This document shows, in pieces, positions 1,912 through 64,000 of a stretch of 64,000 nt of DNA. The stretch is from Antedon mediterranea (lineage: Eukaryota > Animalia > Echinodermata). Position numbers and translations under genes: made by a program. The notes beneath the pieces are model-generated. The model saw nothing but the letters and a program-made list of their open reading frames with translations. It was not told the origin of the DNA and did not search any database. Numbering within the stretch: the first letter of the stretch is position 1; every line of letters begins with the position of its first letter. The stretch covers positions 30,749,648 to 30,813,647 of the forward strand of contig NC_092673.1 in assembly GCF_964355755.1 (NCBI RefSeq). The letters are read 5' to 3'.

Positions 1912-2442
1912 ATGGCAGAGTCTAAACTTTACGAATTCCAAAACTTAAAAGCTGATCTCAGTAAATTCTATGACGGTGAAAGGTACTTTTGGTTACGATT
2001 ATGTTTATTCGACCTCTTAAGTGTGGGTGATGTTACAAATCCAGATTCTATTGGAAACGATTTATTCAATGCGCTTGAAGACAGAGGTTTAATCACGCCA
2101 ACTAATGTTAACATTCTTTTAGAGATAACGAAGCTAACAGAAATGAGGGGGGCTGAGCATATTGTGACAGGATTTATAAATGACAACAACCTTCAGAATA
2201 CAGATGAACCAAAGTTGTCCTTTTTCCGGAAGCGACTTTTCAAAGCTATGAGACAAGTTCACCCAAATGCGTTGAGGGATCTTATCGCTTACTACGGACT
2301 AAGACATCATAACTTTCAGAATATTTGGGACGTGGTTCTGAAACTGGAGATCGACGTAGTTTTAGAAGATAAACCAGATAAAATCAAAAGATTTGCAAAT
2401 TGTCTGGGAGCAACTGTAAAAAACATCCTCATACAGTCTTAA
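1912..2442 (+). CDS. Tandem-DED gene copy 1: exon A only, 176 aa, two DED-like domains
   Basis: Acceptor ctttag at 1883, then ATG. Motifs DLFNALEDRGLITPTNVNILLEI and LSFFRKRLF...NIWDVVLKLE resemble caspase-8/c-FLIP DED1 and DED2. Stops just before a degenerate donor; no micro-exon or exon B follows. Confidence 0.7.
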   Translation: MAESKLYEFQNLKADLSKFYDGERYFWLRLCLFDLLSVGDVTNPDSIGNDLFNALEDRGLITPTNVNILLEITKLTEMRGAEHIVTGFINDNNLQNTDEPKLSFFRKRLFKAMRQVHPNALRDLIAYYGLRHHNFQNIWDVVLKLEIDVVLEDKPDKIKRFANCLGATVKNILIQS

Positions 2443-3264
2443 ATGATAAAGCGTATTTGTATTTAACATTAGATAGATAAATATACTTATGGCAAAGTAT
2501 TAAATTATTGTATACTAAACCAGCGTGATATAGACAATGAACAATCTTGAAGTTGTACCAATTATTAAAGCCAATATTATTATAATGCTTTAGTATCACC
2601 AAGAAACATCTAGAGTAAATAGAAAAGAAAATGTAAGCGAACACCCATATTATTATTCTACTGCAGTAAATTAATTTTCTTTACAACAATGTATAACTTT
2701 ATGATATAGGCCTACTCCAATATACAGTGTGTATTGGCGTAAGTTATTTTAAATACATATTTGTTTCTGTACAAGTAGTACGTATAAAACTAGTATACGG
2801 TATAGTGTTTAGATAGTATGTTTATATGTCATTTTCTTACAGTAGAGATTTTACTGCTGCTTTTTCAATTTTAATCCACCCCGTATCAAGGTTTAAAATC
2901 TAAATCTCTTATTAAATCTGATCTTCTTAACCATAAAATATCTATATAATTGCAAGAGGGTTAATAACGGGTAAATAAATTTTAAAATAAATGGGTTGTG
3001 ATGGTTGAATATTGTATGAACGACATTATTGGATGATTGGAATTATAATATGTCTTTTACTTTTTGTAGTCACTATGTGTAAAATTGCTATAGGGCTTTC
3101 TTAGGTTTTTATACTCGTAGTATTTGAAAAAATCGACCATTTAGCCTATATAATTTAATTATTTGGTCATGTCAAAAATATATTCCGGAGAAATATTTCC
3201 AGTATGCAGATACTTTGGACTTTCTGATTGTTGCGGTCAGTCCATCGATTTTAATTACTTTTAC

Positions 3265-5380
3265 AATTATTATTTAATGTAGCTTCCGCTTCATTTATAA
3301 TACTAACAACATGCAGTGGTGGCGCCAGGATTTCCCCCCGGAGGGGGGGGGGCGAATTCCCCGACGAAAGCGGGGGTGGGTTTGGGAGGGGGTATACCCC
3401 CTCCCGAGCCTCAAAACATTTTGAAAAAATAGATGCTTACACACTGTTTAATAGGCTAGAGCAACTGTTTCCATTACATTTAATAACAATGTCACATAAT
3501 AATGATATATACCCTATAGCCGGGTGAATAACTCAATGTAATTTAGTACTGTATACAATGATGATTGCCGTAATCGCCGTGTCTATAACACAAATCAATA
3601 AAATGCCGTTTTTTCGGCCGTGTACATAGAACAAGACATTTCATGTTTATGTTATGCCTATGAAATAATAATAAAAGAACATCATGTTTATCGTTTTTTT
3701 TATCGTTTATACGACTGCATACCATTATATAAAAAACCTTCATACGCGAGAAAAAAGTTCACGATATTACACTCTACTCTGTACAGGGGTGGTCCACGCT
3801 AACGCATGCACACGGACCAGGGCGGAAAATTGTGTATTTTTGGAGAGTGATGACGTCAGTATTCACAACGTGATGCTGGTAGTGGGAGTGCATGTGTTTT
3901 GAAAATAACTCAGTTGTGGGTTTTCCGAGGATTTTAAATTGCGTTTTCTTTTTAAACTCTTGAATTCATAAATAGTTCTTTCACTATGTAGGCCTATTTA
4001 CACTAGCCTACTCTTCTTAAAAAGAGTCAAGTGCGTCGAATCCGCGTTTAGCGACGGTCACGGGTTTGGTGCATCCCTTTTTTCCCTTTAGAATTAAGGG
4101 AGGTGGCTAGCCACCCTATTCACCAACCAACCGTAGTTGCAAATGAATTTTCGATTTTCGCCTGGAATCTGAAAAATACACATTTTGGTCCCTGGATGTA
4201 ATATGATACAGCCCAGATATGTCGACGCGTATACCGCAGTGAGCCATGAAAGATTCGTACAAAGAGACACCGCCAGACAAATGCGTACCACATCATACCG
4301 TTTACTTCGCTGTCAGTATATCGTACGTACGTCAAAAATGGAATGCCGCAGTTACTTAAAATATATAGTAGTACACACTTAATATGGTTTTATTTTTTAC
4401 CAGAAAAGAAATGATCATATTTTTCTCCCCGACAAATATGACCAATACTCCCCGACGGGGGGGGGGGGGGGGAGAGAGCTTTCCCCCCCCCCCCCCCACC
4501 ACAGACAACATGGAACAATTATATTTATTACAGTGATCTATTGATTGATATATTTAATAATCATTATATAGGCTAATTGTTCCACTGTGCTAACTGAGGG
4601 AGAAAGCGCCATTTTGTTTTATCCCGTTTCGTGAACAAATAAATTACAGGGCCTATTATAACAACTGTGGTCTTGTCTATGTAATGTTAATGATAAATCT
4701 AGACTCAATATGCACCCTTGTTTTGAAAAAATGTAGCCTACTACTAAAAAGTACATAGCAACTAAAATTAGTACTTTAAGTTGTTTGTTATAAATTATGA
4801 GTTTTTTTTTTCAAAGCTATAATTACACTGAATGGAAAATCCCAGACCACTAAAATTTGAATATGTTAATAGGCTACGGCTATTCCATTCTCCATTCTAG
4901 TGGGACGGGATTCTCCATTCAGTGTAATTATAGCTTTAACCAAACATAATTTATAAAAATGTAATGTTATAATTAATGATCGCGTGAGAAACGCCTGATT
5001 CGATTTGAGTATAATTGTTGCATTATGGACCTATAGGTCTGAGTGTTGTCCGATACGTTTTCTTGCGGATAAGCTAACGGTACGTCGCCATTTTAGGTGT
5101 CAAATAAGCAGCGCAGTCATTATTATTCATAAGAGGGCATGTATTACCATGGAACTATAAATTAGCTTCAGTTATTTCAAATTTAGACCAATGTATTTTA
5201 TTAATGCCTATTGTTGATACACCATGATTTCATTTACCTCTAGTGACTTACCAATCCATATGCCTATACGTATCAACACAAAAGACAATATAATAGCTAT
5301 AGTCCAACGATTGTTTAACTCTGTTTTGGTCATCCTTCCACACGTTTCCAAAACATATAAAATAAACTGTTAGGTAACAA
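3265..5380 (+). repeat. Duplicate of the copy-1 upstream region (~55-1830), with deletions and the hAT insertion
   Basis: Collinear shared blocks such as acaacatggaacaattatat, cgcgtgagaa, gtcgccatttt and ccacacgtttccaaaa. Confidence 0.8.
3314..4504. mobile_element. Non-autonomous hAT-like DNA transposon
   Basis: Termini cagtggtgg...ccaccacag; 8-bp TSD acaacatg at 3306-3313 and 4505-4512; empty paralogous site at ~95-110. Confidence 0.8.
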
Positions 5381-5754: not shown

Positions 5755-8700
5755 ATGTCCACTATGAACATTAAAATAAAAGGTATGCATTCAATGTTAT
5801 CAATTTCTTTAAAGCAGCCATTTTAAATAGGTTGATAGGCTATAATACCAAGTTTTAAAACCAATGTAAGAGAAATGTACCTCGAGTATGTCGAGTGTTG
5901 ACAAAGTGCGAAGCAGCGAGGCACGCGAGGCAAGCGAGGCATGCCAAATATTTGTGCGAGGCATCATTTTATCATTTCCAAAAGTGCGAGGCATATAGTT
6001 TACAATTTCAAAAAGGTGCGAGGCATATCTTAACGTGCTATTATGCTATATTATAGGCCTAATAATCAATCGATACAAGCGTATCTAAATAGATTCGTGT
6101 ATACACTCATCATGTTGTTTATTTTTATGTAACGATTGTTTTTTCATTCAAGTCATATCGTGTCAAATTTTACTTTTACAAAAGTGCCCAAACTACGGTT
6201 CAAAAATCTGAACGACAGTCTTCAACTTTCGATAAACAATAATTGTTATATTTTTAAAATATATGGCACTAATTGACGCTATTCCAAGAAACTGGAAAGT
6301 TATAGTGGTTGAGAAACCCTATTGTTATATACATAAAGAGGTTGATACAATAGACAAAAATGTTAATGTTACTTCAAATTATACAACTGTCAAACAATTC
6401 TATTTCACTTTTACCGAGGTAGCATATAAAGCGTGCATACCAAAAGCAAAAGATAAATGGGAAAACCAACTTCAAAATTGTTTTATCGACTGGAATCTAT
6501 GTTGGAAAAACAAAGTTAAGAGTATGTTGCACATAAAAAGAGTGGCTTTCTTTAATTTTAAGTTGCTACATAAAATTTTACCAACTAGGTGTAAGCTAAA
6601 ATTATGGAATTTGTCAAACAGTAATTATTGTGAATATTGTAATGAGGAGGTTGAAAATGAAAAGCATATGTTATTTACATGCAAAGAAGTAAAACATTGC
6701 TGGGTAAAATGTTGCGCTATGTTGAAAACATGTTTTGCATTTACTCAGGAAGTTACATGGGAGAAAATTTTACTTGGAAAATATGATGTCAAAATTAATG
6801 AAATATTTTCCATTTTAACTTTCTGTGTTTATAAAAATAAAGTCAAACACAGACTAGGACTTGTTAAAAAATGTCCATGGTTAATGTTCACTGCGGAGTT
6901 AGAAGATATAATCAATTGTGAGTTTTTAATAAATAAAGAAAAGGCAAAAAAAATGTGGTCAGATATGGACCGTAACAATTTAGCAAGGTATAAAATTAAC
7001 GTTTATAAAATTGATATTTAGGTAAAGTAAAATATAACTTTTTTTTTTTTTTTGATTGCCTGAAAGAGATAAAAAGAGTTATAAAATTAAGAATTCTGTG
7101 GTAAATTATACGTACATTGTTAAGGATTGAAAAACGTGTAAAGAGTGTATAACATAGAGGAATTTTTTTTTCTTTCCTTATACTATTATATATAAAATGC
7201 AATGGTAGGAGTGAGATATCAGTTGTACTGAAAGTTAGTTAATGTCAATTATATTGTATTGTATCATTACATTACTCATGTGCTCAATGTACTCATTGTA
7301 AACGAACATTTTATTGATGAAGAAATAAAAGTGGGTCGATCCTACATAAGACAAAAAAAAAACAATAATTGTTATAGGGACACACTCATCAAATGACTGC
7401 AATGTTTGTTGGCATTTCGAGCGTGTTCACTCACATGTCTCTCGAACATAGCAGAGTGAAAATAATATTTTGTCACACCCCTGCGCCTAGATCCGGTAGA
7501 CCCGAGAGATGGAAAATCCCTCTTTACTATTTAGCAGGTAGCGGAATGATTCAGCCCTCAGCTCAGAGGATTGTGGTGCATTCCCCTACTATAGCACGTG
7601 GTTTCAGCAGCAACGCACAGACTTCTCTCTGAGCGGCGTGCCAAAGACATTTTTGACATTCCATTCTCTAGGAACAACACGTGTACCTCTCTTGCAAATA
7701 AGGTGAACAGCGATTGCCAGGACAAGTTCAGTAACTGGCGGTGAATAAAAGGTAACTGATATGCCGATCCAATAACATGCCGCAAAGAAAAAAATTGCGA
7801 CAGAATTCTGGAGCGCGTGTGAAAAAAGACTTACGTCCGACAATTGTAATACTAGGCCTAAAATTAAACTTTAGCTAATAATTTTTAATATGCTTAGCCC
7901 TAACCTAGATAAGAGGCCTATGTAGAAAATAATTTAATCAATTTTGATATAATAATAATTGGTGTAATATTTAATAATGATACACTATTCCTGTTTTAGT
8001 AAGCTAGGTATATTACGAACGATTTTTATTTATTGTTGTCCATGTACGTACTAATAAACATGGCGCTAGTTTCCTTCGCTTGTATTTTTACTCCAAATTT
8101 GATAACTAACTTTATCATGTGAATACCACACCTTAGAAGTATACCTCATGAGTACTTTAATGAAAGAATCACATAAAAAGTAACAAATAAATCCTTAAAT
8201 TAATGATTTTACAGGCGTGTTTCTCGCACACTGTTCGCGAATTTCACTTATTCAATGTTTAATATTTTTGTTTCTATGGAGCGCCAAAAGAGCAACGATA
8301 ATAGAGGACTAAAACTCAGTGGAATGCGTCAATTTCTCATGCATTTATTGGTGAAAAACACGTTTTATTTGAATATATTTCTTAATTTGTCAATAAAAAT
8401 GTTGTAATATGTTACTGCTGATACTGTTCTGTTTTCTTCAAAGAATAATAATCGATCCTAAATCAACATCACTACCTAGTCTAGACCTAGGACATCCTAC
8501 TAAGGATATTATGATGAATTTTTCTATTTTATTCTTTGAAAGGTTAACGAAACCGTGTACATTATCAACAGTAACATTTTTCCTTACTGACAGTGACAAA
8601 ATCTATTGAAATTGTACTTGATTTTCACCAAATAATGCGTTAAATATAAATGGATTCCACAGAGTTTTTAGCCCTCTAATTAATTTTGCTCTTTTGGCGT

Positions 8701-11504
8701 TCCATAGAAACCAAAATATTGAACATTGAGTGTGCGAAATGCGAGAAAAACAACGTCTGTAAAATCACCAATTTAATGGATTTATTGTTACTTTTATGCG
8801 ATTTTTCTTCATTAAAGTAGGCCTACTAATTCTAAGCTGTGGTATTCAGGATAAAGTTGGTTAAAATACAAGGCAGGTGCAAAAGGAAACTAGACTAGCG
8901 GGCCTAGGCCTAGGCTACTTCAATTTCGGTGATTACCTGCCTTGCAATTTTAAGAAATGATAAAATGATGCCTCGCATTTTTTGATGATGGTAAAACGAT
9001 GCCTCGCATAAATTTCTGACTTGCCTCGCATGCCTTCCCTGCCTCGCGTGCCTCGCTGCCTCGCACTTTGTTACTACCCGAGTATGTCAATGGTCTCATT
9101 ACCAAATGTATCTTAATAGGAATCCATTATCGTAAGATCATAAAACGTCTAATTTTGATTAGAAATGGAACCAAATTATGTTACATAACTTAAAACCGAA
9201 GTAGGCCTAATAAAGCATTGTAAAAATTCCTGCACAGTAGGCCTACTGTATGATAGTCATTTAGGCTAAGTTTATTACTTTGCAGACGAATACACCAGAA
9301 CGGCAGATTCAAAAATATCGGTCAGTTTCCGAGACCTAAAAGCTGATCTTAGTCGATGCTTTGACGGTGATAAATACCTATGGATAAGGTTCCTACTATT
9401 TGATGTCTTAAGTATCGGTGACCTTACAGCCCCACTTTCCATTGGAAAAGATTTGCTGAATGCGCTTGAAGATAAAGGTTTAATCACATCAACTAATGTT
9501 AACCTTCTGCTAGAGATTTCGAAAACATCCGGAGCGACACAGGCCAAAGTTCTTCTGACAAAGTATATGAGAGACAACAACGTTCAGGAAATAGGTACTA
9601 GCAAAACCAAGTTGTCACGTTACAGAAAGCGACTGTTCAAGACCCTAAAACAGGTTGACCCAGATGCATTACGTAATATTACTTCTTTCTACGGGTTAAG
9701 AAAATATAACTTCTCCAATGTTTGGGATGCAGTTCTCAAACTGGAGATCGAGGAAGAATTAGCAGCTGATTCAGACAAAATAAAAAAGTTTGCTGGTTGT
9801 CTAGGCAAAAAAGCAAGAAGCACACTACTTGATAAAGGTATATTTAAAGATGTATTTTCCCCCTTGTGTGTTGAATATGCCATTTTAATGTCACATAATA
9901 GTTATTCACTTGACCAAAAATAGAATCTAAAAAAAATAAAACTGTAATTTAAAGCACAAAAAAAAAAGTAAAATTGGCTGCCAGCCAATGGATTTTTTGT
10001 TGAATTTAACCAATTATTATGGTATTTTATAAGTGAAAACATTATTTTTTTCGTTTTTTTTTTCTATGGAAGTGATTAACTTTATTAAAACTAAAAAATA
10101 ACCTATTCAAAGTCTGATTTAATTAATCTTCATTTTCATGTTTTTGGGGGACAATACATCTTTAATCTTTTCCGGAGTTTAATATAATGTTATTGAATCT
10201 TTCTTTTTTAAATGGTACCGGTAGTAATATTAATAATATCAAAGTTGGATCATTTGCAATCATTAAAGTTGAAACGTATTAACTGATTGTTTATTTTATA
10301 GGCAATAGTAAGAAGGACGAAAATGAGACTGAGTCATCAAGTCAAGAATGTGAACCAAGTGAAGGTAAATTATTCATAAAGTAAATAAGACAATGGTATG
10401 GTCGGGAGAAACCCATAAGAAGGGTAAACTAGATTTGAAGTCAGCACGCCATTTTTATCATGTAAAAAGTTCATATTATAAAATACATTTTCGTAAAGTT
10501 TCATTGAAAAATAAATTTTTGTTCAGATTTAATGATCAACCATAACATTTCATAAATCGCGCGTAACTTACAGTTAGAGGTCAATCTTATGACAAAGTTA
10601 TACAATCTTATGTTGGCTAGAATTAGAGATACGCTGCGAACAAAATTCGTGGAAAGAAAGAAGAATAAGATAGAAAAAAAAGATCCTGACAATAACAAGT
10701 GGTTATCCGCCAAGTGCGGATAACCAACAAGAATGATTGTAACAATCTATGCTAATGTAATAATGTGTTGATGAATAATGGAAATTGAGAGTGGGTTGTT
10801 AATAGTACGACAGTTTGTAAAAAAAAGCTGTTTATAGGTCAAAAAACTATTGTGATGCTTTAATGTATTTATGTTCATTAAATTCATAATCTTCGTTTGA
10901 AAGTTATGATTTCAATAATAATCAAAATAATATCAATGGATAACAAAGTTACAGTAACATGTTCCTTTTTTTTTTAAATCAATATATAGATTTATCGATG
11001 GATGATTTTAGACTCTTAATTGCGGACTTTGTAAGATGGTTTGATGCTGGTGGATTCCAAAGTCTAAACATTCTAAAAGTTCTATTCATAGAAATGTTAG
11101 GTGACATTGAAGAGTTGAAAAGAGCTAACGGTACAACCGAGCTGTTATGTATCTTAATGGGGTCTGGGATATTAAGTAAAAAAAATCTTTCGGTCCTCTA
11201 TGACACAATAAAGGTAACTGAACAATATACCTTTGAGTCAAGCATCACAAAGAAACTTCATCCTTTCAAAAATATCAGGGAACGTGAGGTAGTATCATTT
11301 TCACAACATACCGTTAGTATTTTTGATCTGGGAAAATCCCTTAGTGATCAGGATATAAAGGATCTTGATGGACGATACAACTTCCCTATCCGTAGGATGT
11401 ATATAGACGCATGGAGTTTGATTTTGCATTTTGAAGATCGGGGGTTGTTGAGCGAACACAATATCGCGTATATTAAGAATTTCTTAAACAAGAAAAAAAA
11501 ATAA
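5755..11504 (+). CDS. Tandem-DED gene copy 2, intact four-DED protein of 385 aa; exons 5755-5782, 9286-9837, 10302-10364, 10990-11504
   Basis: All introns are GT-AG and phase 1; the exons sum to 1158 nt with an open frame: MSTMNIKIK/DEYTRTADSK...LLDK/GNSKKDENETESSSQECEPSE/DLSMDDF...NKKKK*. Confidence 0.8.
5893..9079. mobile_element. Non-autonomous Mutator(MULE)-like element inside intron 1 of copy 2
   Basis: Terminal inverted repeats (TIRs) acaaagtgcgaagcagcgaggcacgcgagg and cctcgcgtgcctcgctgcctcgcactttgt; 9-bp TSD gagtatgtc at 5884-5892 and 9080-9088. Confidence 0.8.
6251..7359 (+). mobile_element. 5'-truncated L1/Tx1-type LINE (ORF2 C-terminus with zf-RVT, 6263-7021) nested in the MULE-like element
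   Basis: FNFKLLHKILPT...CEYC..EVENEKHMLFTC CCHC motif; AATAAA and poly(A) tail; TSD aaacaataattgttata at 6234-6250 and 7360-7376. Confidence 0.9.
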
Positions 11505-12612
11505 ATAAAGTTGACTAGACTTTTTCGCTGTTTTTAAAAAACTATTAGCTTAATGTAGCCTATAGGCCATGTATGACAACCAATAGTTGTGATACTATAA
11601 ATTGATGATTATAATAGTTAATAATGAGATTATTTTTTGTTTGTTAAAACTGTGAGAATTTTACACACTTTTGCTATTAAGTTCATGATAATTATATGTA
11701 AAATATATCCGTAGGCATACTCTTATTCGAGGAAAATACATTAACATATTCTTCTCATATTTTGTTTTTGTTGTGGTTTTGTTTTTCACTGATGCTGTTG
11801 ATTTTAGATACCATATTATTGGAAGAAAACCATTATTAAAGTAGTTTTGAAAAAGAAATACAGTTTCTTGAGAAAATGAAATATGTGTCATTTTTGTCTT
11901 GAGCATTGTAATTCTTTTATTTCAGACAGAAAAAGTTCGTAGTACAGTACAAACAGTATACATACACACATACATAAATAGCATTAATTAATGCTTGTAT
12001 ATGTATGGATGTATATGGACCATAGGCATACAGGACTTTACTTTATTTATGTACTACCATGGACAATTGTTATCGTTTGTCCATGATAGTTTTTGTTATA
12101 ATAATGTAGAAGCCATTGCTTCTAGTTTAATTAATATTGGGCAAAATATTTGGTTTTCTGTGGCAACCTATTGCAATATGAGGAGGTTGCATGCATGGCA
12201 TAGTTGCCATTTCTGGCATTATTATACTTTTTGGCATTATTTGGAGGCCTACGGCATCTGGCATAATGCCGCGGCATTATTTAGCCGTTTTTAGCATAAT
12301 CTGGCATAATTTTGTGTTTTTTGAACAACCAAAAAAATAATATACCACAGAACAAAAATAAAATATTTTGTTAATACATATCACCTTACACAATATCATA
12401 TCGTACAAAACAGATCTGTTCGGGTTTTCCGTACAATAGTTCTTCCATCCTTTCGTTCGGACTTAATCGACTCTTCGGATAGGAAGGCTGCTCGGAAACT
12501 ACCGTGTGTGCGATATAGGCAGCACAACAAATCCGAAGAGGCTAGCTATTGGCCAATTATGTTGCTCTATTTCAGAGACCATGCAGGTTATTGGATCCCC
12601 AGATAGAGACAA

Positions 12613-13713
12613 TTGAACGATGATGATACTAGTTTATTTTGTTCTTTTAATCCACATGAAATTGTTGACCTAACAAATGTAAATGAGCAGTTGAAACATA
12701 TAGTAGATTGGTGTGATGTTAATAAGTTGACAATTAATTCTAAAAAGACAAATTATATTATATTTCGTAATCAGCATACAATAATTGAAGTAAAGGGGGA
12801 TATATACATAAAGGAATCAAAATTAGATGAAGTTGAAGCTACAACTTACATTGGGGTAGATATAGATAATAGACTTACATGGAAAGTGCATTCTAATAAG
12901 GTTAACAAAATTATTAGTTCTAAGGCTGGTTTATTGTACAAACTTAAATATGTTGTACCCCAATCAATTTTGGTGCTTTTATATAATTGTTTTATTTTGC
13001 CTCATATTTCATTTGCATTAGAAGCTTGGGGTAACACTTATAAAACTCATTTAAAACCAGTATATTTAACACAAAAACGTATTATACGCACATTGACTTA
13101 TTCTGATAGACTAGCACCCAACATCATTATTATTCAAAGAACTTAAAATTTTAAATATTTATCAGCAGCATCAGTATTTAATTACTTTATTTGTTCATGA
13201 TAGTTTACATGGTAAATTTACAGATACAACTCCTAAATATTTTTTGTATATTAATTTTCATTATTCATCAAGGTCTCAGACTAGAGAAAAGTTGTATGTA
13301 CCAAAATATAGAACAAACATAGGACAACATTCCATCAAGTATTCTGGTGCAAAGCTCTGGAATGAAATCCCGGATGATTTAAGGTTTCTAACAAAAAGCA
13401 AATTCAAAAAAGAAATGAAAACATACTATTTGTTTGTATAGTGATATTTATTTATTTTATAAGAGAATTATATTGTATATATTTGAGAGAAAGTGTATTT
13501 AAAAAAAAAAAAATGTTTATGTATATTAATTTTATTTTAGACAAGTAGCCCTTATTTATTTATATAACTATTATACTTCAATGTTTAGGGGCTGAACTTG
13601 ATTAGTTTTAACTATTTTTTAGCCCTTCCCTTGATATAATTATTATTATTTGTATATTATTACAATGTTTATAATTTATATTTATGGGTAAATAAAGAAA
13701 GAAAGAAAGAAAA
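12613..13713 (+). mobile_element. 5'-truncated CR1/L2-group LINE, RT C-terminal part, frameshifted
   Basis: DDTSLF, WCDVNKLTINSKKT, YIGVDIDNRLTWKVH, GAKLWNEIP; tail aataaa(gaaa)n. Confidence 0.9.
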
Positions 13714-20170: not shown

Positions 20171-20364
20171 ATTAAATATTTTTAAACTCGTGATAATGAT
20201 GTAGGATGGGATGTAGGATGTACGACACAATGGAATAGCCTTATTAAATATTCATAGTAGGCCTATTATTATACGCTACGTTGTCTTGTATTGGTGTAGA
20301 CTAACATGATCAGTAGCCATTTTAAGGTGTGCCAAATCATCGTTATTCGCATTACAGGTATATT

Positions 20365-20790: not shown

Positions 20791-20854
20791 CAATTTTACA
20801 AATGTAATAAAATGTGTTCTTTGCAGACCGTCAGTAACAATAACACACAGTAAG

Positions 20855-25127: not shown

Positions 25128-25450
25128 CAAAGAACTTATAACACAAGAATCTCCTGTTCTTCAATTTGCATTCAAAACACAGTATCGGAAGTACAGGGTT
25201 AAAAGGTCAAACTGGGCGACGCCATTTCACAGCATGGCGCAGCGCCCCCTCCAAACTAGGAAGTCAATTACTCTACCCCTCTAGAGTATTAGCAGATCCC
25301 CTCTTTGATTTTGACTTTCTAATTTGATGCGGGCGCCCTACTCCATGGCTCACAATGGCGCCACCCATAGCTCTATTCTATCCCACAATGCCTTTCGAAA
25401 TTGTTACGCGCTTCGGACGAACAGGAGATTCTTGTGTTATAAGTTCTTTG
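25128..25450. mobile_element. MITE with ~32-bp TIR and 7-bp TSD (P-superfamily-like) in intron 1 of copy 4
   Basis: actaaag-[caaagaacttataacacaagaatctcctgttc...gaacaggagattcttgtgttataagttctttg]-actaaag. Confidence 0.85.
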
Positions 25451-42830: not shown

Positions 42831-42880
42831 ACTACCATGATTATTAAGAATTCTATCAATCTGATTAACAAAACTGACCT

Positions 42881-47413: not shown

Positions 47414-47638
47414 TAATCGATGGACTATAGTTTGCTATAATCAACGTTCAACCTATGAAATCAGTGATGTTAATAGTGTCCGCGATAACAAACCTTCAAG
47501 TGGTTTACTTTTGTGATATAAAGTGTTTTTTTTACCATGACCATACATAAATGGAATAGCCTATATTAAGCTTTTACAATCAATATAAATTATATTGTTG
47601 CATACGCTCACGTACGTTTTTTTTTGTGGAGAGGATAC

Positions 47639-48083
47639 GTCGCCATTTTAGGGTGTATAGCCTATAGTGCAAATCATCATTATTGACAGTATATTGCCAT
47701 GGAGCTATACATTAGTTCCAAGTATTTCAAAGTTAAACAAATTTATTATTTCATCAATTCATGGAGGTATGCCCACTGTTGATAAACCATGCTTGTATTT
47801 ACCTACCTATCTCTAGTGACACTCAATAATAGAGTATGGTCTTTTATGATTATACTTTGTCAAATTTGTATAAGCTACAAAACAAACGACAACAAATTGG
47901 GTTCGGGCCAAGAATTGCTTTTCTCTTTTTTGATCATCCAGCTTCCATACGTTTACAAAATATAGGCCTATAAAATAAACTATTAATATGAAATAAACTG
48001 ATACAATAATAAGCACAACGAAAACCAATGTTCTGTAAATTTATTCTTCAGCCTAGATTCTAAACTTAACGAATTCCAAATAC
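47639..48083 (+). pseudogene. Tandem-DED gene copy 5 remnant: promoter motif, intron 1 and the first ~30 nt of exon A
   Basis: Collinear with 1300-1945; ttcttcag|cctagattctaaacttaacgaattccaaa, after which homology ends. Confidence 0.7.
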
Positions 48084-48980: not shown

Positions 48981-50656
48981 ATGGCGGGAAGTATGAATGG
49001 TATTTTTCTGGTGCTGTCGCTATATGTTATGGTGTTGAAAAGATCACACCATCATCCTGAACATGAACAAGTCATTCATAAGTTATGCCCTTCTTCAATT
49101 TATCTGGATAACCATATATCGAAAGATTTCAAGAATGTAGTCGGTGAGTGTTATACGTACCTATTTACATCAACCAAAAAATTCTCGCATTATGATTATA
49201 ATTTTCATCGGAACCCCAGACAGCTTGCATGTGAGAACTTTAATTATCTGCTTACTGTGGTGTGGTGACATCGAATCCAATCCTGGACCAGCGAATGTAC
49301 CTGTATCAAACAATTGTTGTGGTAAATGTCAACGGCGCATCACTACCAGAAGCAGAGCCATATCGTGTGATGAGTGTAATAAGTGGACTCATATGTGTAC
49401 TGATGGTTTCATGACGCCCAAAAGATACAAGTACATTGTAAACAGCAATACTGAATTTGATTATGTATGCGTGGAATGCAGCTGGAAACATCTCCCATTT
49501 GATTCCTGTGGAAATCATAACGATGACATAGGATTAGGAACGCCACCCCCATTATTTAATTATAACGTCACTCCTGAAGACTTCAGGCGGTTTAAACAGA
49601 AAGGAATACACATTCTACACTTAAATACAAGATGATCAATGATCCCCAAACTACCGGAACTGCGCGATATTGCATATAAATGTAAAGCTGGTATTATCTC
49701 CATTAGCGAAACATGGATTGATGATTCGGTATCTGACAACGAAATTAAAATTGAAGGTTATTCAGTTCTTCGAAGAGATCGCGACCGCAAAGGCGGTGGC
49801 GTATGTACGTATATAAGGGATGACATCGCGTTTAACCGGCGTTCAGATATTGAATCCGACGAAGCTGAAGTACTTTGGATTGAACTGAACCTGCCTAAAA
49901 CCAAACCCATTATAATTGGAACATGTTACAGACCACCAAAGCAAACGAACTTTCTAACTCTGTTTGAAAATATCTTATCTAAAATTGGAATGGACAGTGA
50001 ATTAATTGTTGTTGGCGATTTTAATATATGTACTTTAACAAAGTCATCTTTATTGAATAGCTATAATCAAATTCTAAATATGTTTAGTTTAAGTAACTGA
50101 ACCAACTAGTATATGCCCTACAGTTGCTTCATATCTCGATCATATGTTATGTAATAATGAGAATAAGATAAGCTAATCGGGTACAATCGCAACAGGTCTA
50201 AGCGATCACTTAATGACATTTTGTACACGGAAAACTATTAAACTTAAGTTCAATGGACATAAAAATGTATATATCAGATCACTAAAAAACTATACAGTTG
50301 AACAATTTAGAAACATACTAATAGATATCGATTGGTCAGTAGTTACCTCTATCGGAGATGTAAATGAAGCTCTGTATAAATTTAATGCATTACTTTTCGC
50401 TGCTATTGATTCCATTGCCCCCCTTAAAAACATTAGGATGAAACAAAGAACGGAACCATGGTTAACTAGAGAAATATTACAAGACATTAAAGCCAGAGAT
50501 AAATTATTAAATATGTTTAATAAAAACAAGAATAATACCGACTTATTAATACAATTTCGCAAACTAAGAAATAAACTACAGCGTGATATAAATAAAGCTA
50601 AATCAAATCATTTGTTAAACAAGGCTGAAGAAAATAAAAATAATATTTTTCATTGA
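48981..50656 (+). mobile_element. 5' half of an L2/CR1(Crack)-type LINE ORF: 2A peptide, PHD finger and APE endonuclease; degenerate and 3'-truncated
   Basis: CGDIESNPGP; CGKC...CDECNKWTH..C...CVEC; ISETW, DRDRKGGGV, CYRPP, VGDFN, SDH; stops at 49633 and 50098. Confidence 0.9.
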
Positions 50657-54098: not shown

Positions 54099-54945
54099 TA
54101 TATGCACTCTTTTTGTACAGGAAATGAGCTTTGACTCTTGAAAATTAAAGCGAGCCAATAACTTTGGTTTCTTTCGATTCAAGCACATTTTTCTGTCTGT
54201 CAATTACATATGGTTCAATCTATAAATACACTATTTCCTTCTATGTAATCAGCTATGTTAATAGTTTCCGTGATAACTCTCAAGTGGTTTACCTTTGTGA
54301 CCCTTTTTCTAATACGGCCATATACATAAATAGAATAGCCTATTGAACTTTTACAATCTATTGTTGCATAGGCCTGCATCACTGACGTACGTTTTATTGT
54401 GAAGAGGATACGTCGCCATTTAGGGTGTTATATAAGCCTAGTGCAATCATTATTGATAGGTAATGTATTACCATGGAGCTATAAATTAGTTCCAAGCATT
54501 TCAAATGTATGCCACTGTATTTGATTAATGCCTAAATTGATAAACTATGATTGTATTTACATAAATTTCTCTAGTGACTTACCCAACAATCCATAGATCT
54601 ATTGTTATGAAATTTAAGTATAGGCTGTTATTGTTTAATCTCAATCTATTTCATGATCCTTTGATAAATTTTATAAACTATAGCCTAAACACAAAAGACG
54701 AAAATTAGGCTTTAGTCAACGATTGCTTTGCTCTGTTTTGGTCATACTTCCACACGCTCCCAAAATATATAAAATAAACTATTAGGCCTACTCGAAATTA
54801 ACCCAGGACTGAATTAACCTGATACAATAATAATCATTATGTGAAACCAATGTTCTGTAATTTTATTCTTTAGCATATCGTAGAAAACATAATACGACGA
54901 GATGGACGAGATGGCAGATTCTAAATTTCCAAATTCCGAAACTTA

Positions 54946-55563
54946 CCGACCCACACCCATTCCCTACAATTTGTGACGCTTTGTAAAAATAATGCATATA
55001 TATTATTTAAAAACATTAAACCAGGTCATCCTTGTCTATGGTAAATTATGATAAAAGACAAGAAACAATTATGCACTACCAAGTAGCTCGGGGTGAATGT
55101 CCTCTCGTTGGCCGTCTTTAGACCTAGCCTATTAGCTAGGCAAATTTTGTAGGCCTATCTGGTAAACATCGGTAACGTGAACATCGTACGCGAGCTAATA
55201 GGCCTGCTTCACGTTGTACAGTTGCTGCATTAGTTATCTTTCTATTTTTGACAGTTTTCGTTGATACAAATTTGGGGGAACCAAGTATTTTCACTGAAAA
55301 GTTAGGAGTCTGCTATTTGTTTTGTCCTCACGATCGATCGAAAAGTTGGTGAATTACAGAAGAAAACAAAAATATCAATCCGCGCGCAATGCATGTTGGA
55401 TTTATAGCGGGCCACTAAAATGATTAGAATCGCTTTATTTTTCACATTTTTAACCATTTAAAGACAAAAAAAATTATCTAAATAGGACCATATAGTATTT
55501 ATTTTTACATTAATATAGTTTGTGACCTTAAATTAGATCTAAAAAACGCAGGGAATGGGTCTT
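54946..55563. mobile_element. MITE inserted at the TTAA of exon A in copy 6
   Basis: acccattccct...agggaatgggtct-ttaa interrupts aaacttaaaagctgatctc; left end degenerate. Confidence 0.65.
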
Positions 55564-55877
55564 TAAAAGCTGATCTCAGCAGATTCTATGAAGGTGAACG
55601 ATATATTTGGTTTACGATTATGTTTATTCGATCTCTTAAGTGTGGGTGATGTTACAAATCCAGATTCTAATTGAAACGGTTTATTCAATGCGCTTGAAAA
55701 CAAAGGTTTAATCACACCTATTAATGTTAACATTCTTTTAGAGATAACGAAGCTAACAGAAATGAGGGGGGCTGAGTATATTGTGGCAGGATATATATAG
55801 GCCTAAATGACAACAAAGTTGGTGAAAAAAAGTTGTCCTCTTTCACGAAGCGACTTTTCAAAGCCATGAGACAAGTT

Positions 55878-57878
55878 TTTTTTTTCTCTTTTGTGGCGTG
55901 AACCACCACCTTTATTCTTTCATATCATAATTAAATACATTACAAATAAATCAGTAATATCTTTATATTTTTCTGCTCAAAAAAAAAATATCAGTAATTT
56001 TTGTAAATTTTAGTTTTTCACATATTGTTTCCAATATTATCCTCCTGTTTTCATGGTTTCTTATATTTATTCACATTGTACACAGACACCCACAAATACA
56101 TTAAATATATACATATACATACCGTATTGTTTCATACCCTGTTAATTCATACCATTTATATACATCTTATAGACATTATATACAAAGATATAAAACAACG
56201 TTTAAAAAAAAAATAAATACATTAATCAAGATATATATAATTTTCATAAAAATTTATTAGGTACCGGTAACTCTTTTAACATTATATGAGCGTTAGTTTG
56301 TTCAGATCCTTAACAATAGACTTAAATACAATCCAAGAGTTTTTACACACTGGTTTGTTTAATTCAGTTAAAATCTTAATGTTATATATTGAGAAGACAG
56401 CAATTGAATATAAGTCATTTTTGTATTCACAATCAGACCCTAAAAGAAGTTCTCTAAAAGAGCTTCTGCCATTGTCAATATTTTTAAAAATGTTATCTAT
56501 ATTTTTCCATAAAGTTTCGTATGCATTCAAAAAACATGTGTTTTTCGTCTTCAATTACCCCACATAAGTCACATACATTATTCATTTTCACATTCCACTT
56601 ATGAAGCCTTTGATTAGTCGGAACAATTTTGTTCAACAGCTTGTAATTTAGTTGTGCATATTTTTTTTTTTTTTTTCATTTTTCACTTTTTTTTATCCAA
56701 ACGTCACTCCAATTTATTTTTGAGTGTTAAAGGCCATATTCCATTTGCCCATTACATGCGGATAAATAAATTTTTCTTTAATAAAGCACGAATATATAAG
56801 TTTTGTTTCCAGCATATAGGCGTCATTAGTTATGATGCTCTCATCTTTTATATTTGTAGGCACGTTCTTGTAATTTTTAATTATATTAATCCAATCTTTT
56901 GGAATAGCATCAACTAAGGAAGCATATTCCATGAGCCAGTTTATTTTATTAGGTAGTGTTTCAAGGATTTCATTAGATGTTTTCAAACGGTTAAAATTAA
57001 TTATATCAATATTTTTTAAAATTCTGAATCAAACCAATTTTTATAAAACAAAGACCTTTTTTTGTACACAATATATTTGTTTCTCCACAAACTTTGATTA
57101 ACAACTTCTTCATAAGTATTGATTTCATGGCAGCAGTTTTCGTTAAATTCAGTACAACATTGTATCACTTTTAAATAAAAAGGAGGAATGTTTTTCAAAG
57201 TAATGCAATTTACCAGGTTAATATTTGACATACTAAAGATCAATCTTTAATTTCCAAACTTATTTATATAATATGTTGGTAATAGCTTCCATCTCACATG
57301 CTTTCTACATATTAATTTTCTCGCCCATGCAACCTTGAGCGCTTTGACCTGTAATGCAAAATCCGGCATTTATTATTAATACCTCCATCTTTTAGCTTGC
57401 CAATTAATGTCTTTCTTTGAATTTTTTCCCCTTTTCCATTCCATAGGAAATCGTATGTCAGTTTATTCACCCGTAAAACAACATAATTTGGTACATCAAT
57501 AATAGAGGCGTTATAAATTAGTTTAGATAAACCAAGACTCTTTAAAATTGTAACTTTTCCAAAATATGTAAGGCTTCTACCTTTCCACGTGTTGAGTAGT
57601 CTTTCTAAACTTAACAATTTATTAGCCCAGTTTAGTTCTTGACATTCATCCTTTTTTGTAACCTACATATATTCCTAAAATTTTAATGGGTTTTTTAACC
57701 CAATTTCAGTTACATGGTTTTTCGATTTTATTTATATTTCTACCAATCCACATGGCATTTGTTTTTCTTTTGTTAAGGCTCATACCTGATACTTTTACAA
57801 AAGTTGGTAACAATATTTAAACCTATCTCAATACTATCCTCATTCCCAGTAAAGATAACTGTGTCGTCCGCTAATTGG
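55878..57878 (-). mobile_element. 5'-truncated L1/Tx1-type LINE inserted in exon A of copy 6
   Basis: Starts at QLADDTVIF; WKGRSLTYFGKVTILKSL, IPPFY, DAIPKDW; poly(T) on +; 15-bp TSD gccatgagacaagtt at 55863-55877 and 57879-57893. Confidence 0.92.
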
Positions 57879-60800
57879 GCCATGAGACAAGTTCACTCAG
57901 ATGAATTGAGAGATCTTATCGCTTACTACAAACTAACTCATTTTAACTTCCAAAATGTTTGGGACGTGGTTCTGAAACTGGAGATTGATGCAGTTGTAAG
58001 AAAATGAACCCGACAACATAAAATATTCGCAAGTGGTCTTGCGCCAATAGTAAAATAAATTCTACCTAATAATGGTATGTATTATATTCTTCTATCTTTT
58101 AATAAATTATTTTGAAATATTTTACTCGAAATACAAATGTATGATTATTACAGTAACAATCATTTTCGTCCTTCTCTTCAACAGTATACCTTAGATCTCT
58201 CTGACGATGATTAATCAGTTAATTGTGGAATTTGCAAGATGGTATGATACACATTGGACACTTTAACAAGCTACAAGTTCTTTTTATAGAAACTGTTGGC
58301 GACGTTTATGCAATGGAAACAATTAAATATTTTGAATTGAACTGGCTAGCTGAGTTAATTCGACTTGGGCTATTGAGTCTAACGAATCTTACTGTCTTGT
58401 TTATATGAAACAATCAACATAACTAAAATTGGGTTTCAGTCGGAAATCGAAGAAAGAAAGACATCAGGGAACGTGAGGTAGTATCATTTTCACAACACAC
58501 AATAAATATTTTTAACCTGGAAAAATCACTTAGTGACTCCGATGTAACAACTCTGAATGGACAATACAACTTTCCTAAACCTAAGAAGTACATCGACAGC
58601 TGGAGTTTGATTTTGGATTTTGCGGAGACAAAATTGAATCGGTTTGGAAAATAATAACGATAACGATCGACGATAACTAGATAAACACACATTTTTCATA
58701 CATAAACATACATTATGCTGTTTTTGATAACAATAATATTTTTTTTATTCCAATCAAATGACGTCATGATCAATAAAAACAATAAAAACTTTGTACTTTT
58801 ACGATTTTTTTGCGTAATTTGATTGGACGTGGGAAATATTATTTTCATGAAAGAAATCATAGATGGTAATCCTATGCGATAAAATCTTTTTTTGATTTCT
58901 TTTGTTTTATGTATGAGAAATGTGTGTTTATCGATCGTTAGTGTAAATGGGCCTTTGTACTTTGAGTTTAACCTTAGTTTAATCATTATAGTATGTAACC
59001 GTGTGAACTATTACTAATGATCATTGACGGTAATGAGAATAAGCTACATTGAAAGCCTTTGACGATTCTTTTAGTTAAGCAAAAATGAACCGCCTCTCTT
59101 AATTTATTCATTAATTCATTCAAATCCTTGGCAATGCTTTCTCTTCGATGTAACCTTCTTGAGTTTAACTTATTTTTCATTGTGTTCTAACTTTTGTTTT
59201 AAATTTAATTAAAACAAATTATTATAGACATAGTGAATTTATTAAACGTTTGTCCCAGCTTTTTATATTTCTTCATTTTATATGAGGGTAGCTTGCTCAT
59301 TTAAGTTGCGGCGATCGATAAAGTTTGCTTAAGCTGCCCCAGCCCAGCTTTTTTCATCTATTTATTATAATTGTATTGTATGTTATTGTATTTTTATTAT
59401 GTTGATCAAATGAATAAACGAAACAAAACAAGGTCATAATTCATAAATATATCAATAGGCCTAACCAGTAGTATGCAGTACTTTAGATATAAAAATGATA
59501 TGTTTGATAACTTGAATAAATCTATTCTAAACCATTGTTATATTCTTGTTCAATTGTATGTATATTTTAACTGAGGAATAGCAAACTCGCGATCATACCT
59601 TAATATTACAACCTTTATCACCGAATTCCCCACATTTCCGATATTTACAAACAAGAAACTCCCATCAAAGTTTTCAGTCTGATTGATTCAAACAACCACT
59701 ATCACATATCTTAGCCAACTTTGCAAACGGTTTTGAATCTCTAAATTAAATTCGATAAAACTATCTATTATATATGTATATGTAATACCGAGCCTTTCTC
59801 TGAACCACTACCTTCCCTTAATATACAGTCATGGAAGAACTACATGGTACAATTCAAATAGTGTCTGACAGATCATATGTATAATGGAAGGCATGTATAT
59901 AAAATATGTATTAAAACATACAAAATAGGCCTGTAATTGTGTATAAACTTATTTCAACTTAATGATGCGTGTATTTTGAATGGCTTTGCAACATGCTGTA
60001 GTTCTGAAATCATATTTGTGTAATTTAAATCCGCAAGGTAATCAACAATTAGGCCTACTATACTGAAAATTGTCTATGACATTACACTGGGAATTTTAGT
60101 GTAGGCCTACAACAACAACTTCAATTTTACTTACAGTATAATAGATGTCGGAGGCTTTATTGTTAAGATTCAGTTCCGTCAGTAATTCAACCATAACTTA
60201 TTCAGTTTGTCAACCTTGTCAACACAATGTATTTTAGGCCTACCTTCATTGTATTACAATGGTTGTTTATGGATCGAACAACCCTAAAGCGATAATCTAT
60301 ATATAAATTATGGTTAATTCTGACATAGGCGAGCACAATGCAAAAACTTCGGTACTAATCTCCGCCTTGGATACCTACCTTATGTATCTCAGATGTACCG
60401 AGAAACGTAGATTTGATAACATTAATTTTCAGTACTACGCTATTGTCCCATATTTCTATCTTAGGAAAATATAATAAATGGTTTTATAACAACATTTTTG
60501 ATTTCATCAGTATATTTTAAATTCAATTTCAATTGTACGCGGGTCGAAGTAATTTCCGGGTTCACGATAAGTTCACATGTTCACCTTGCAACTTCCTGGT
60601 TTCAACTAAGTTGGCCGTTAGTGGCTATATAGCCATTTTAGTTTTTTGTTTATTTTCGGATCGGACCGCGCGTGTGTTAAAACATAACAATTATACTGCA
60701 AATTAATAAAGATCAAATTAAATATACGCCATAAAGCATCGGAATATATTGTAGGGAATAGTATTATAAAATTACATAGGGAGATCTGATGATAGGACAT

Positions 60801-61507
60801 TTTTTTTAAAATCGAGTGAAATCCCGATAGCCGAGTTTTATTGAGTAAGCTGGCAGGAATAACTGTAGGCTATCTGTGTCCCGTTAGGACCGGGATGTCT
60901 GCCCATCTTGCAAGCCGTCTACAACGTTTTCTTGCCGAGGATGTTAGTTTCAAAAGATGTTTAAATTAAATAATGTATTCATTATTAGGATGACATTTAT
61001 TTTAATAAACGCCTCCCCAATAAAACATCACTTTGAATAATAATCGCTCCCCCCCCCCTCCCACCCCAATTAATATTATTATTAATTATTATTAATACAA
61101 TAATTATAATTATTCAACGAACTGTTGCAACAGAGAGAATACGCCATTTTGTTTGTTGAACTAGTGCATTCGTAATATTATTTACAAACAAAACGCAAAC
61201 TATTGATGTAAAACCGACGTAGATTTAGCAGACAAAATAAAAAGGGTGGCTGGTCTGCTTGAAAAGGAAAAGTAACATACTATACTTGCTAATGGTACGT
61301 AAGATTATATTTATCTTGAAAGATTATTTCAAATGCAAATACACTCATAGGCATTTTTTATTTATTTTTATTTCCTCTTAAACCACAATTTCCAAAAAAT
61401 AGCAATATTATTTATTACCAAAGACTAATTAACATTGGTGTATCTTTAGATTATAACGACATAATTTACGTAGTTTAGTATATTATGTATTTGCTGATTA
61501 TTTATAG

Positions 61508-62287
61508 GCAATGGGAAGAACGAAAATGAAGCTGCTACATCGAGTCAACAATGCGAACAAAGTGACAGTAAGTAGCTGCCTACTTTTATATTTAAAAGTA
61601 TTAATTGTATGACTTTAAAAAGTAGGGTGAATGTTTAAAACAGTTTGTCAACAGAGGCCAAAAAAAAAGAGTAAAGTAATACTACTTTTACAACAAAAAA
61701 AAGCATAGAAGACCCAAGTATGAAGAGAAGCATGTGATAATGATTACTGTTATGATGTTGTTGATGTTTATATTACGCTAAAGAAATTAGAATAGAACTA
61801 CAAACTTATAATGTTGAGAGTGTTAGTTTGCCGTAATTATTTCAAAGCCATTAGTTTTTGAGTAGAAAACTGTTTAAAGAATTATATGTAGGCCTATACT
61901 GTGTATTTCATAATGACAATATTACAACAATCACAGTGTCAACAATAACAAAGAGAACATGCTAAATGTATTGTATTAATGGTAACAAACCTTTCTTTTG
62001 TACAGATTTCTCTAATGACACAGTTGCAGCAACTAAACTATTTGGCTTTCAATCGGCCATTAAAGAGAAGCTTCCTGCTTTCAATAACATCAAGAACCGA
62101 AAGGTAGAATTATTTTCACCCCACAGATTAAATATTTTTAATCTCGGAAAAATCTTAGTGATTCAGAAATCGAAACTCTTGATTGACGGTACAACTTTCC
62201 TGTCCTTTCCTGTATACAGACAGCTGGAGTTTGATTTTGGATTTTGAACATCGAAAATTGCTGAGTAAAGACAAAATCGAGAATTGA
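61508..62287 (+). pseudogene. Tandem-DED gene copy 7 remnant: micro-exon 61508-61567 and internally deleted exon B 62006-62287; no exon A
   Basis: GNGKNENEAATSSQQCEQSD micro-exon; DFSND joined directly to TVAATKLFGFQS; frameshifts. Confidence 0.8.
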
Positions 62288-62944
62288 CTTTGTGGTGTTA
62301 TTCCACTATTAAAATAATCTATATAGTCAAACTATGTATAAAAAGTGGAATTCATTGTCCAATGAAGATAAATGATGACGTGTATAAACATATAGTTTGA
62401 ATTAATAATCTATCCTTTGGTAATGTCCAGTTAAACCATATGTTAATCTATGGTTATTTTTTGTCGTTTTGACGTTCCATCTTCTGCAAATAATAAAAAA
62501 TACAATATAAAATATTAGTGCACAGTTCTTTAGAATTAGATATCAACTCAACTTGTTTTCTGAAAGTTTGAGTTGATTAATAATTACTTTGTAGCTTTTT
62601 ATTGGTTTTTACAGATTATTCCATTTTTTATTTTGTGTTTATCAACCAAATCATAGCAAAATATGTAATTAAACTAATGATTGTCAGCGGATAAACTTGT
62701 ACGACTAGTTTTAGTAGTTTTTACAAGCTATGGATTGTTTGCCTTTGTCTATTATTAACGCACCACTTGTGTCCTAATAACATCTGACGAATCAAACCAT
62801 ATTCAATATCTATTCATTCATATGCTAATTAGATGAACAAGATTGTCGCCATTTTTAGGGTGTGCCAAACATACCTGTTTGATTGCGTTGAAAGGACCAT
62901 ACATACAACTAAAAGGTAACGCATTTCTTATTTAATCACGGAAA

Positions 62945-64000
62945 ATGGCAGCTAGAATGTTCAAAAAACTAAAATCTGATCTTGGTAGATGTTATGAAGG
63001 TCAAAATTACCTTCGACTAAGATGTATTTTATTTGATCACTTGGAAATCGGTGAAATTACGAATCCAGATTCCATTGGAAACGACTTATTTAATGCCCTC
63101 GAAGACAAAGGGTACATCAAACCAACTAATGTTGACTTTCTACTAGAGATTTCGAAACTGTCAGGAGTAAAGGGAACTGAAAATCTTGTAAGGCGGTATA
63201 TGAAGGACAACAACGTTCAGAATACGACGGATGATCCACAGTTGTCACAATATCGACAGAGACTGTTTAAGGTTCTATTAGGAGTTAACCCAAGTGCATT
63301 TAAAGCTCTTGTTGCTAACTACGGCCTGAGACAACACAACTTTGGAAGTGTCTGGGATGTAGTTCTTAAACTTGAAATCGACATGGACTTAGAAGATGAT
63401 CGAGAGAAAATAGAAACGTTCGCTGATTGTCTTGGGAAAAGAGCAAGGAAAACACTAGGCCTCTCTGTTGATGGTATGTATTTCAATACAATCTTCAATC
63501 TTCATCTCTAACTAATTGATACATAATGTAATTTCGTCCTGTTTTGTTACTACTACTACAGTACTATTAATACTACTACTACTAATATACATACTAGTAA
63601 TGCTGAATTTTTAAATAGTTTAAACGGTTGTTATTATAATATATCATAATGATGTATTGTTGTTGTTAAATGTATTACTGATTACTTTGTAGGCAATAGT
63701 GAGAATGAAGGCGCAACATCGAGTCAAGAACGCAAACCAAGTGAAGGTAAATTACTTAAATTTAAATACTAAAAGAATGATTAAGCCTAAAGAGAAAATT
63801 ATGGCAAATCAGGGAAAGAACTATTATTGTAAAGAAGAAAATGATGAATAAGATTATGATAATGATGATGCTTAATATTAACGTGATTTTCTTTAACCGT
63901 ATAGATATCTCGAAGGATGATTTTCTACAGTTAATAACAGACTTCGCACAATGGTACGATAAAAAAAATCTTCTGGACAGGCTACAAGTTCTATTCATAG
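62945..64000 (+). CDS. Tandem-DED gene copy 8, intact as far as visible; exons 62945-63473, 63693-63746, 63905->64000
   Basis: Open frame, phase-1 GT-AG introns, micro-exon GNSENEGATSSQERKPSE, exon B DISKDDFLQLITDFAQWYD... Confidence 0.85.

Follow-up and report, generated by a model that had tools for sequence, protein, structure and literature searches.

We have analyzed a window of 64,000 nucleotides from the crinoid Antedon mediterranea (contig NC_092673.1, positions 30,749,648 to 30,813,647). It contains an array of genes coding for proteins made up of death effector domains (DEDs) and little else. A complete gene codes for four DEDs in two pairs: pair A, coded by exon A, and pair B, coded by exon B, joined by an acidic linker coded by a micro-exon. 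These enzyme-free proteins share their exons with receptor tails, those of Roco GTPases being the closest. Tentatively, we read them as free-standing receptor tails which would act as decoys, damping DED assemblies in the way of CARD-only proteins (COPs), pyrin-only proteins (POPs) and c-FLIP-S.

Self-comparison and translated searches detect the exon A / micro-exon / exon B unit recurring on the + strand, from position 1912 to 64000. DNA profiles (nhmmer) of exon A, exon B, the micro-exon and the first exon give seven copies with coding remains and two fragments which only contain flanking sequence (Table 1). This recurrence is far above chance, with E-values to 1e-163. Copies 2, 3 and 7 are intact four-DED genes (385, 357 and 359 amino acids), copy 1 is a truncation with two DEDs, and copies 4 to 6 are broken. 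The DNA-profile search of the window found no eighth coding copy, and no DED exons between about 28.0 and 54.2 kb. A preliminary description of this locus had proposed some eight four-DED-only genes with a single exon architecture on one strand. The architecture and its phase-1 introns stand, with seven copies in all, three of which code for four DEDs. The first exon is coding in copy 2 only: In copies 3 and 7, the annotated protein begins at an ATG within exon A.

Splicing the three GT-AG phase-1 introns of copy 2 (5755–11504) gives a product identical to P0001 (XP_071948275.1). Copies 3 and 7 have two phase-1 introns each, the product of copy 3 is P0020 (XP_071947004.1), and the part of copy 7 inside the window matches P0016. 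An annotated isoform of copy 3 omits the acidic linker, as the micro-exon is skipped. In all three intact proteins a stop directly terminates exon B, and the annotated products do not run on into NACHT or caspase exons, as the preliminary description had thought conceivable. Within the window no Roc-COR, NACHT or caspase exons are joined to the DEDs, and the non-DED parts of 127 homologues (with the DEDs masked) have no matches. The copies were also considered as the 3' ends of Roco genes, which was rejected on these same two grounds. Only 17 to 38 residues lie outside the DED modules: The proteins are death-fold domains without enzyme or NTPase, so the lack of a catalytic domain described previously is borne out. 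We have also used X1, a sequencing run from another study whose RNA nature is a guess, and which has no reads over copy 3. An X1 contig alignment ends at 10988, beside the acceptor of copy 2 exon B, with 191 letters of the contig left unaligned, and no matching joint is found among the 15 joints listed out of 327.

The identification of these domains as DEDs, already made in the preliminary description, agrees with structural and profile comparisons. A single-sequence AlphaFold model of P0001 has a predicted local distance difference test score (pLDDT) of 35. The model of P0016, obtained from a 42-sequence alignment, has a mean pLDDT of 91.9. It contains two rigid halves and a disordered linker, with pLDDT below 50 at residues 178–188 and a predicted template modelling score of 0.54. 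In structural alignments, the exon A half matches the caspase-8 tandem DED with Z 16.1–16.3 and a root mean square deviation of 2.8–3.0 over 160–162 residues. DEDs outrank the other death folds among 48,161 chains (Z 9.9 for pyrin, 8.8 for death, 7.2 for CARD), and at the level of a predicted structure the DED fold of pair A is confirmed. Foldseek gives no match at E <= 0.001, its best one being the caspase-8 tandem DED at 2.3e-3. ESM Atlas groups P0001 with DED clusters (score 0.92). All seven exon frames tested match Pfam PF01335, every one under the gathering score of 35.9 bits (P0001 35.6, P0012 31.1, P0016 26.6); several homologues pass it, with up to 68.9. Exon B matches the Pfam DED with E 1.3e-5 to 1.5e-5, and hhalign aligns pair A with pair B (75%, E 2.5e-5, 155 columns). 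A PDB sequence search with exon B gave no DED match. From the Pfam and profile evidence, pair B is probably a DED pair as well. Profile comparison of the two DEDs of a pair gave a weak match (probability 1%). The model has confident helices in pair B; helix 3 is missing from DED2 and DED4, and the last helix, helix 6, from DED4 too.

The top structural matches are the tandem DEDs of caspase-8, c-FLIP and viral FLIP, and in PDB sequences the family profile matches c-FLIP best (E 0.0096). These proteins might then act like c-FLIP, directly regulating the conserved death-receptor complex of FADD and caspase-8. We find this very doubtful: Identity is 11–18%, the motifs differ, and Roco and NLR modules are far closer. 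The structural match does not name a partner, because no other tandem DEDs have been solved.

The closest relatives outside the array of the six modules of copies 2, 3 and 7 are Roco tails, with 65, 59, 51, 72, 48 and 57% identity. NLR N-termini come next, with 43–52%. Caspase-8 and FADD, which had been proposed as signalling partners, only reach 15–18% in structural alignments, and that proposal has to be revised, the nearest kin being Roco and HEPN tails (59–72%). A search of longer proteins with exon A gives nine matches, all of them from Antedon: copy 2, seven proteins with COR or Roc-COR-like regions before a C-terminal A pair (five of them with Pfam COR-A), and P0004, which has an A+linker+B layout. 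With exon B there are 11 matches: the array genes, a Roc-COR protein (P0013), three COR-like fragments and a HEPN protein, all carrying pair B. A linker like that of the micro-exon also precedes the DED pairs of P0004, and there is a weak match at the same place in P0013. The N-terminus of P0004 matches no named family and has only Ig-like matches near a template modelling (TM) score of 0.5. It resembles the region following ZU5 in P0039, and we have labelled it, presumptively, as UPA-type.

Phylogenetic trees place the Roco tails among the array exons. In the pair A tree, built from 33 rows selected within the family, copy 2 joins seven Roco/UPA tails (99/96), and copy 7 comes next (97/92). 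A single clade of the six A modules of the array is rejected in the approximately unbiased test (p-AU 0.022), with groups named after earlier trees were inspected. In the pair B tree (30 rows), a single clade (100/99) holds five array modules together with the tails of Roco, HEPN and UPA-type proteins. This clade is sister to NLR N-termini (99/95), and all its members share the loss of the last helix. Copy 1 is sister to the intact four-DED genes P0021/P0022 (100/99). By the trees and the p-AU value, the array modules have a recent shared origin with a domain of a signalling protein of the same genome; the records concerned are placed on a contig of equal length, 36.19 Mb. The Roco-fused A modules retain an internal Met at the start position of copies 1, 3, 4 and 7. 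This Met and the nesting of Roco tails among array exons point to a possible capture, in which Roco genes would have taken the cassette from a copy-2-like gene, with A or B lost afterwards.

Exon A is under purifying selection. The ratio of nonsynonymous to synonymous substitutions (dN/dS) is 0.28–0.47 in six of six pairs, with all intervals below 1; these values are rough, since dS is near 0.8–1.0 and the Nei-Gojobori counting method was used. Splice sites and open frames have been kept despite a DNA divergence of about 30% between copies. In neutral simulations, the frame stayed open in none of 2000 runs at 0.45 changes per site, which is the observed divergence, and in 13 of 2000 at 0.2. 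Copies 2 and 3 have a synonymous divergence of 0.94 in exon A, against 0.45 in exon B, a hint of possible exon-level exchange between paralogs.

On the other side of the balance, four of the seven copies are broken or truncated. Copy 1 has lost its splice donor, and neither a micro-exon nor exon B is found downstream. Copies 4, 5 and 6 have frameshifts, stops or deletions; the frameshifts of copy 4 affect both exon A and exon B. In copy 5, exon A is split by a 0.6-kb insert and by a 2-kb insert similar to a long interspersed nuclear element (LINE), and is followed by a decayed exon B from 58195; DNA profiles found no micro-exon in this copy. The LINE-like insertion (55878–57877) has a 15-bp target duplication and a T tract. 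One X1 contig has 3 differences from the window over 452 bases, one of which turns codon 278 of copy 2 into a stop; this may correspond to a null allele or to a close paralog. Selection, broken copies and the nonsense change fit birth-and-death evolution, with divergent intact copies mixed with pseudogenes, as had been described.

Alternatively, the array might mainly be left over from exon shuffling or serve as its reservoir, with copies that were detached from receptor tails or donated to them and do little by themselves. The proportion of broken copies, the nonsense change in another sample, an exon B dN/dS near 1 within error and the presence of symmetric phase-1 exons on many proteins would agree with this, and part of the selection on exon A could predate detachment. 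Nevertheless, we consider it improbable: Frames and splice sites have survived the divergence mentioned above, exon A is constrained, no neutral simulation kept the frame at the observed divergence, and the copies share a promoter-like first exon of their own.

The exons of the array belong to a large family. A search of the full library (E <= 0.001) gives 193 clusters at 50% identity, 150 of which are listed; a Pfam scan took in 109 of the 144 new clusters, mostly the longer ones. Among the matches listed, 162 proteins have a full module: 27 with NACHT, 21 with Roc/COR (both by our own labels, with five isoform duplicates dropped) and 37 unlabelled. Other partners are NHL, kinase, TIR, ubiquitin, USP, MAM, ZU5, RIG-I helicase, Rel homology, very large GTPase, HEPN and caspase. 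Proteins formed only by two or three pairs account for 19 sequences (18 genes) of the matches listed. The 20 cluster representatives which we looked up are all from crinoids, 11 from Antedon and 9 from Anneissia japonica; as identification covers these 20, we regard a restriction of the family to crinoids as likely. Four-DED-only genes are also found in Anneissia japonica, and divergent A+B genes (P0041, P0044, P0037, P0045) lie on at least three other Antedon contigs, so the array in the window is one of several.

Some architectures in the family are unusual. The module is N-terminal in a Rel-homology protein (P0135), a RIG-I-like helicase (P0136), a very large GTPase (P0076) and a caspase-8-like protein with four DEDs (P0064). 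P0026 is an NLR with five DED pairs (10 DEDs). The group of P0025, P0027 and P0029 includes a Roc protein with four near-identical pairs, as well as 8-DED and 6-DED proteins with little else.

This variety would allow a broader interpretation, which we regard as unlikely: Crinoid innate immunity would have been rewired onto one shuffled tandem-DED exon with subclass-specific binding, present in NLRs, Roco GTPases, RIG-I, Rel, very large GTPases, kinases, TIR and caspase-8-like proteins. The four-DED proteins would then be converters and brakes linking Roco to caspase/NF-kB through DED filaments. The main rival to the decoy function is that of a bipartite adaptor such as ASC or FADD, in which pair A would bind A-class receptors and pair B would recruit B-class effectors (caspase-8-like), while skipping of the linker would alter its reach. 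Two pairs about 20% alike on a flexible linker, an annotated linker-less isoform, the recurrence of the A+B layout in divergent genes on other Antedon contigs, and B-class pairs on the Anneissia protein P0064, on a Rel protein and on a RIG-I helicase all agree with an adaptor. We nevertheless think it somewhat unlikely: Both ends are closest to Roco tails, not to a receptor and an effector, and the fourth DED is shortened. Known death-fold adaptors are also mostly conserved single genes, and this array turns over fast.

We keep to the decoy function as a working interpretation, the most plausible of those considered, because the tails of Roco GTPases consist of the same kind of domain pair. 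In the available parts of the cited papers, the DED pairs of caspase-8 bind like pairs and form filaments (PMC4558505), c-FLIP-S blocks the activation of procaspase-8 (PMC4819448), and CARD-only and pyrin-only decoys arose through duplication of their target genes (PMC3775265). By analogy, activation of a Roco or NLR protein would bring its DED pairs together and seed a DED filament, which would recruit an effector, for example a caspase-8-like protease. The four-DED proteins would enter this assembly through contacts between like DEDs, add no catalytic activity, and damp the signalling started by the receptor, as c-FLIP-S does on caspase-8 and CARD-only proteins on caspase-1. The array would gain and lose genes in step with the receptor family. 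The dispensable copies, including the one with a nonsense change in X1, fit such a tuning role.

Several observations weigh against decoys. Their binding and their effects on filaments and cell death are all putative, and kinship with Roco tails means shared exons, which is no proof of partnership. Many Roco models are partial at the N-terminus, and P0007, P0008, P0015 (Roco by similarity), P0017 and P0019 (weak COR-B) have no firm Pfam Roc/COR match. The only caspase with a DED-pair module which we retrieved, P0064, comes from Anneissia, none from Antedon. The low similarity of pairs A and B suits a two-ended adaptor equally well. Constraint on exon B is not clear, with a dN/dS of 0.79 (0.48–1.26) in one pair, copies 2 and 3. 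With the site placed through the c-FLIP alignment, RxDL occurs anywhere in just 3 of 213 family modules, and a test for the E/D-RxDL triad was negative. At two helix 2 sites, DED1 of A-class modules has F in 55% and L in 59%, with V-L in the B class; the mapping of these sites onto DED2 and DED4 lacks confidence. Among intact copies, the F-L pair is retained only in DED1 of copy 2. Because RxDL is absent and the F-L pair is mostly lost, the vertebrate DED interface cannot be assumed.

Table 1. Features of the DED gene array in the window (positions from the first nucleotide of the window).
Feature	Position	Strand	Evidence and remarks
Copy 1, promoter/first-exon-like motif	1289–1350	+	nhmmer E 0.0015; with GCCATT
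Copy 1, exon A alone	1912–2442	+	Translated and DNA-profile searches; open 176-amino acid two-DED frame, stop 2440–2442
Orphan duplicate of copy 1 upstream flank	5054–5374	+	Self-BLAST; promoter-like motif near 5087, no DED exon
Copy 2, first coding exon	5755–5782	+	ATG, phase-1 donor
Copy 2, exon A (DED1+DED2)	9286–9837	+	Pfam PF01335 E 0.023; phase 1-1
Copy 2, acidic micro-exon (linker)	10302–10364	+	Phase 1-1
Copy 2, exon B (DED3+shortened DED4)	10990–11504	+	Stop; AATAAA at 11506
Copy 3, first exon, likely untranslated	20292–20357	+	nhmmer; RefSeq protein begins in exon A
Copy 3, exon A	20827–21383	+	ATG at 20855
Copy 3, micro-exon	21513–21560	+	Skipped in annotated isoform X2 (P0012)
Copy 3, exon B	22038–22534	+	With stop
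Copy 4, pseudogene with first-exon motif	24952–27880	+	Exon A 25663–26198, micro-exon 26443–26478, exon B from 27387
Orphan duplicate of copy 1/5 upstream flank	47453–48055	+	Self-BLAST, nhmmer; promoter-like motif near 47642, no DED exon
Copy 5, pseudogene, duplicate of copy 1 lineage	54400–58640	+	Exon A pieces 54884–54945, 55560–55877, 57878–58075
Copy 6, remnant	61211–62284	+	Exon A end 61211–61295, micro-exon 61508–61567, exon B 3' half 62011–62284, frameshifted
Copy 7, exon A	62945–63473	+	ATG; promoter-like motif at 62848
Copy 7, micro-exon	63693–63746	+	
Copy 7, exon B	63905–64000	+	Cut by window end

A GCCATT element is common to the first exons and to the two orphan flanks, at positions 1304, 5087, 5726, 20316, 24976, 47642, 54415 and 62848. 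It seems to resemble a YY1-type start-site motif, and the sequences which contain it may be promoters or first exons. A long acidic open reading frame (ORF) at 26535–27356 was considered as an exon and rejected, as it corresponds to a GAT microsatellite inside a copy 4 intron. This is the last intron of the copy: It contains a GAT-rich tandem repeat of about 680 bp (26662–27345), which yields stop-free low-complexity frames. A retrotransposon is found on the - strand at 39995–43891, with a gag-like ORF, a frameshifted reverse transcriptase (Pfam RVT_1) and a tyrosine recombinase ORF (Phage_integrase E 7e-6). From this gene set it is probably DIRS-like. LINE-like fragments, with zf-RVT, PHD and endonuclease matches, are located at 6236–7021, 12607–13441, 46699–47229, 49141–50656 and 55878–57877.

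If the decoy interpretation is correct, decoys similar to the COPs and POPs of primates would have arisen independently, with four domains, and Roco GTPases would be filament-seeding immune receptors in an animal. The array would also offer a small natural test set for the specificity of DED assembly without RxDL. If it fails, the locus still documents exon capture between stand-alone genes and receptor tails. As for size, this one family has 193 clusters, and humans have about eight DED proteins, according to part of PMC2246300.

Among the closest known systems are the short FLIPs. c-FLIP-S/R, the viral FLIPs MC159 and K13, and caspase-10G, described in part of PMC4558505, have the same enzyme-free tandem DED fold, with Z 12–16 in our structural comparisons. 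Unlike c-FLIP-S and the viral FLIPs, which have exactly two DEDs, copies 2, 3 and 7 have four (copy 1 alone has two), in two pairs 20% alike, without RxDL and with a shortened last DED. They are separate multi-copy genes, not splice forms of a caspase-like gene, and do not descend from the family of caspase-8 and c-FLIP, as the modules of Roco, HEPN and NLR proteins are nearer. CARD16/17/18 and POP1/2 are likewise death-fold-only and lineage-restricted, and they go back to the duplication of a signalling protein's interaction domain, as stated in part of PMC3775265. Here the domain is a DED instead of a CARD or PYD, there are four domains, the relatives are Roco GTPases and NLRs, and identity to the putative targets is 48–72%, compared with 97% for CARD16. 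Our best guess is that the four-DED proteins would work like COPs, POPs and short FLIPs, yet they belong to neither group.

The DED-NACHT NLRs, DED-RLRs and DED-TRADD-N proteins of invertebrates also use a shuffled DED connector with lineage-specific expansions; in the portions at hand of PMC2575513, PMC8662601, PMC8998645 and PMC8195603, such grafted receptors have single DEDs. Here the unit is the tandem pair, with up to five in one protein (P0026), and it also stands alone. Roco genes with death-fold or TIR partners have been proposed as immune receptors, and their expansions are known, as far as the accessible parts of PMC11378527 and PMC9334734 go. Compared with other Roco proteins (DAPK1, those of Trichoplax, the brown-algal expansions), in Antedon the array exons are Roco tails, and the genes in the window have no Roc-COR. 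Adaptors such as ASC and FADD carry two death-fold classes, whereas both halves are of DED type here; as these halves are distinct DED subclasses, the four-DED proteins may still work in an adaptor-like manner. In full-text literature (with few subscription papers, and supplements outside the scope) we have found no four-DED-only proteins, crinoid DED families or Roc-COR with a DED-pair tail; domain tables in supplements, such as those of PMC8195603 or PMC11378527, could list such architectures. The set had been put forward as possibly undescribed, which agrees with this literature, although RefSeq already annotates the intact genes, as uncharacterized, and similar arrays exist. In summary, lineage-specific death-fold expansions are already familiar: What is new here is the link to Roco tails and the crinoid-wide DED-pair module.

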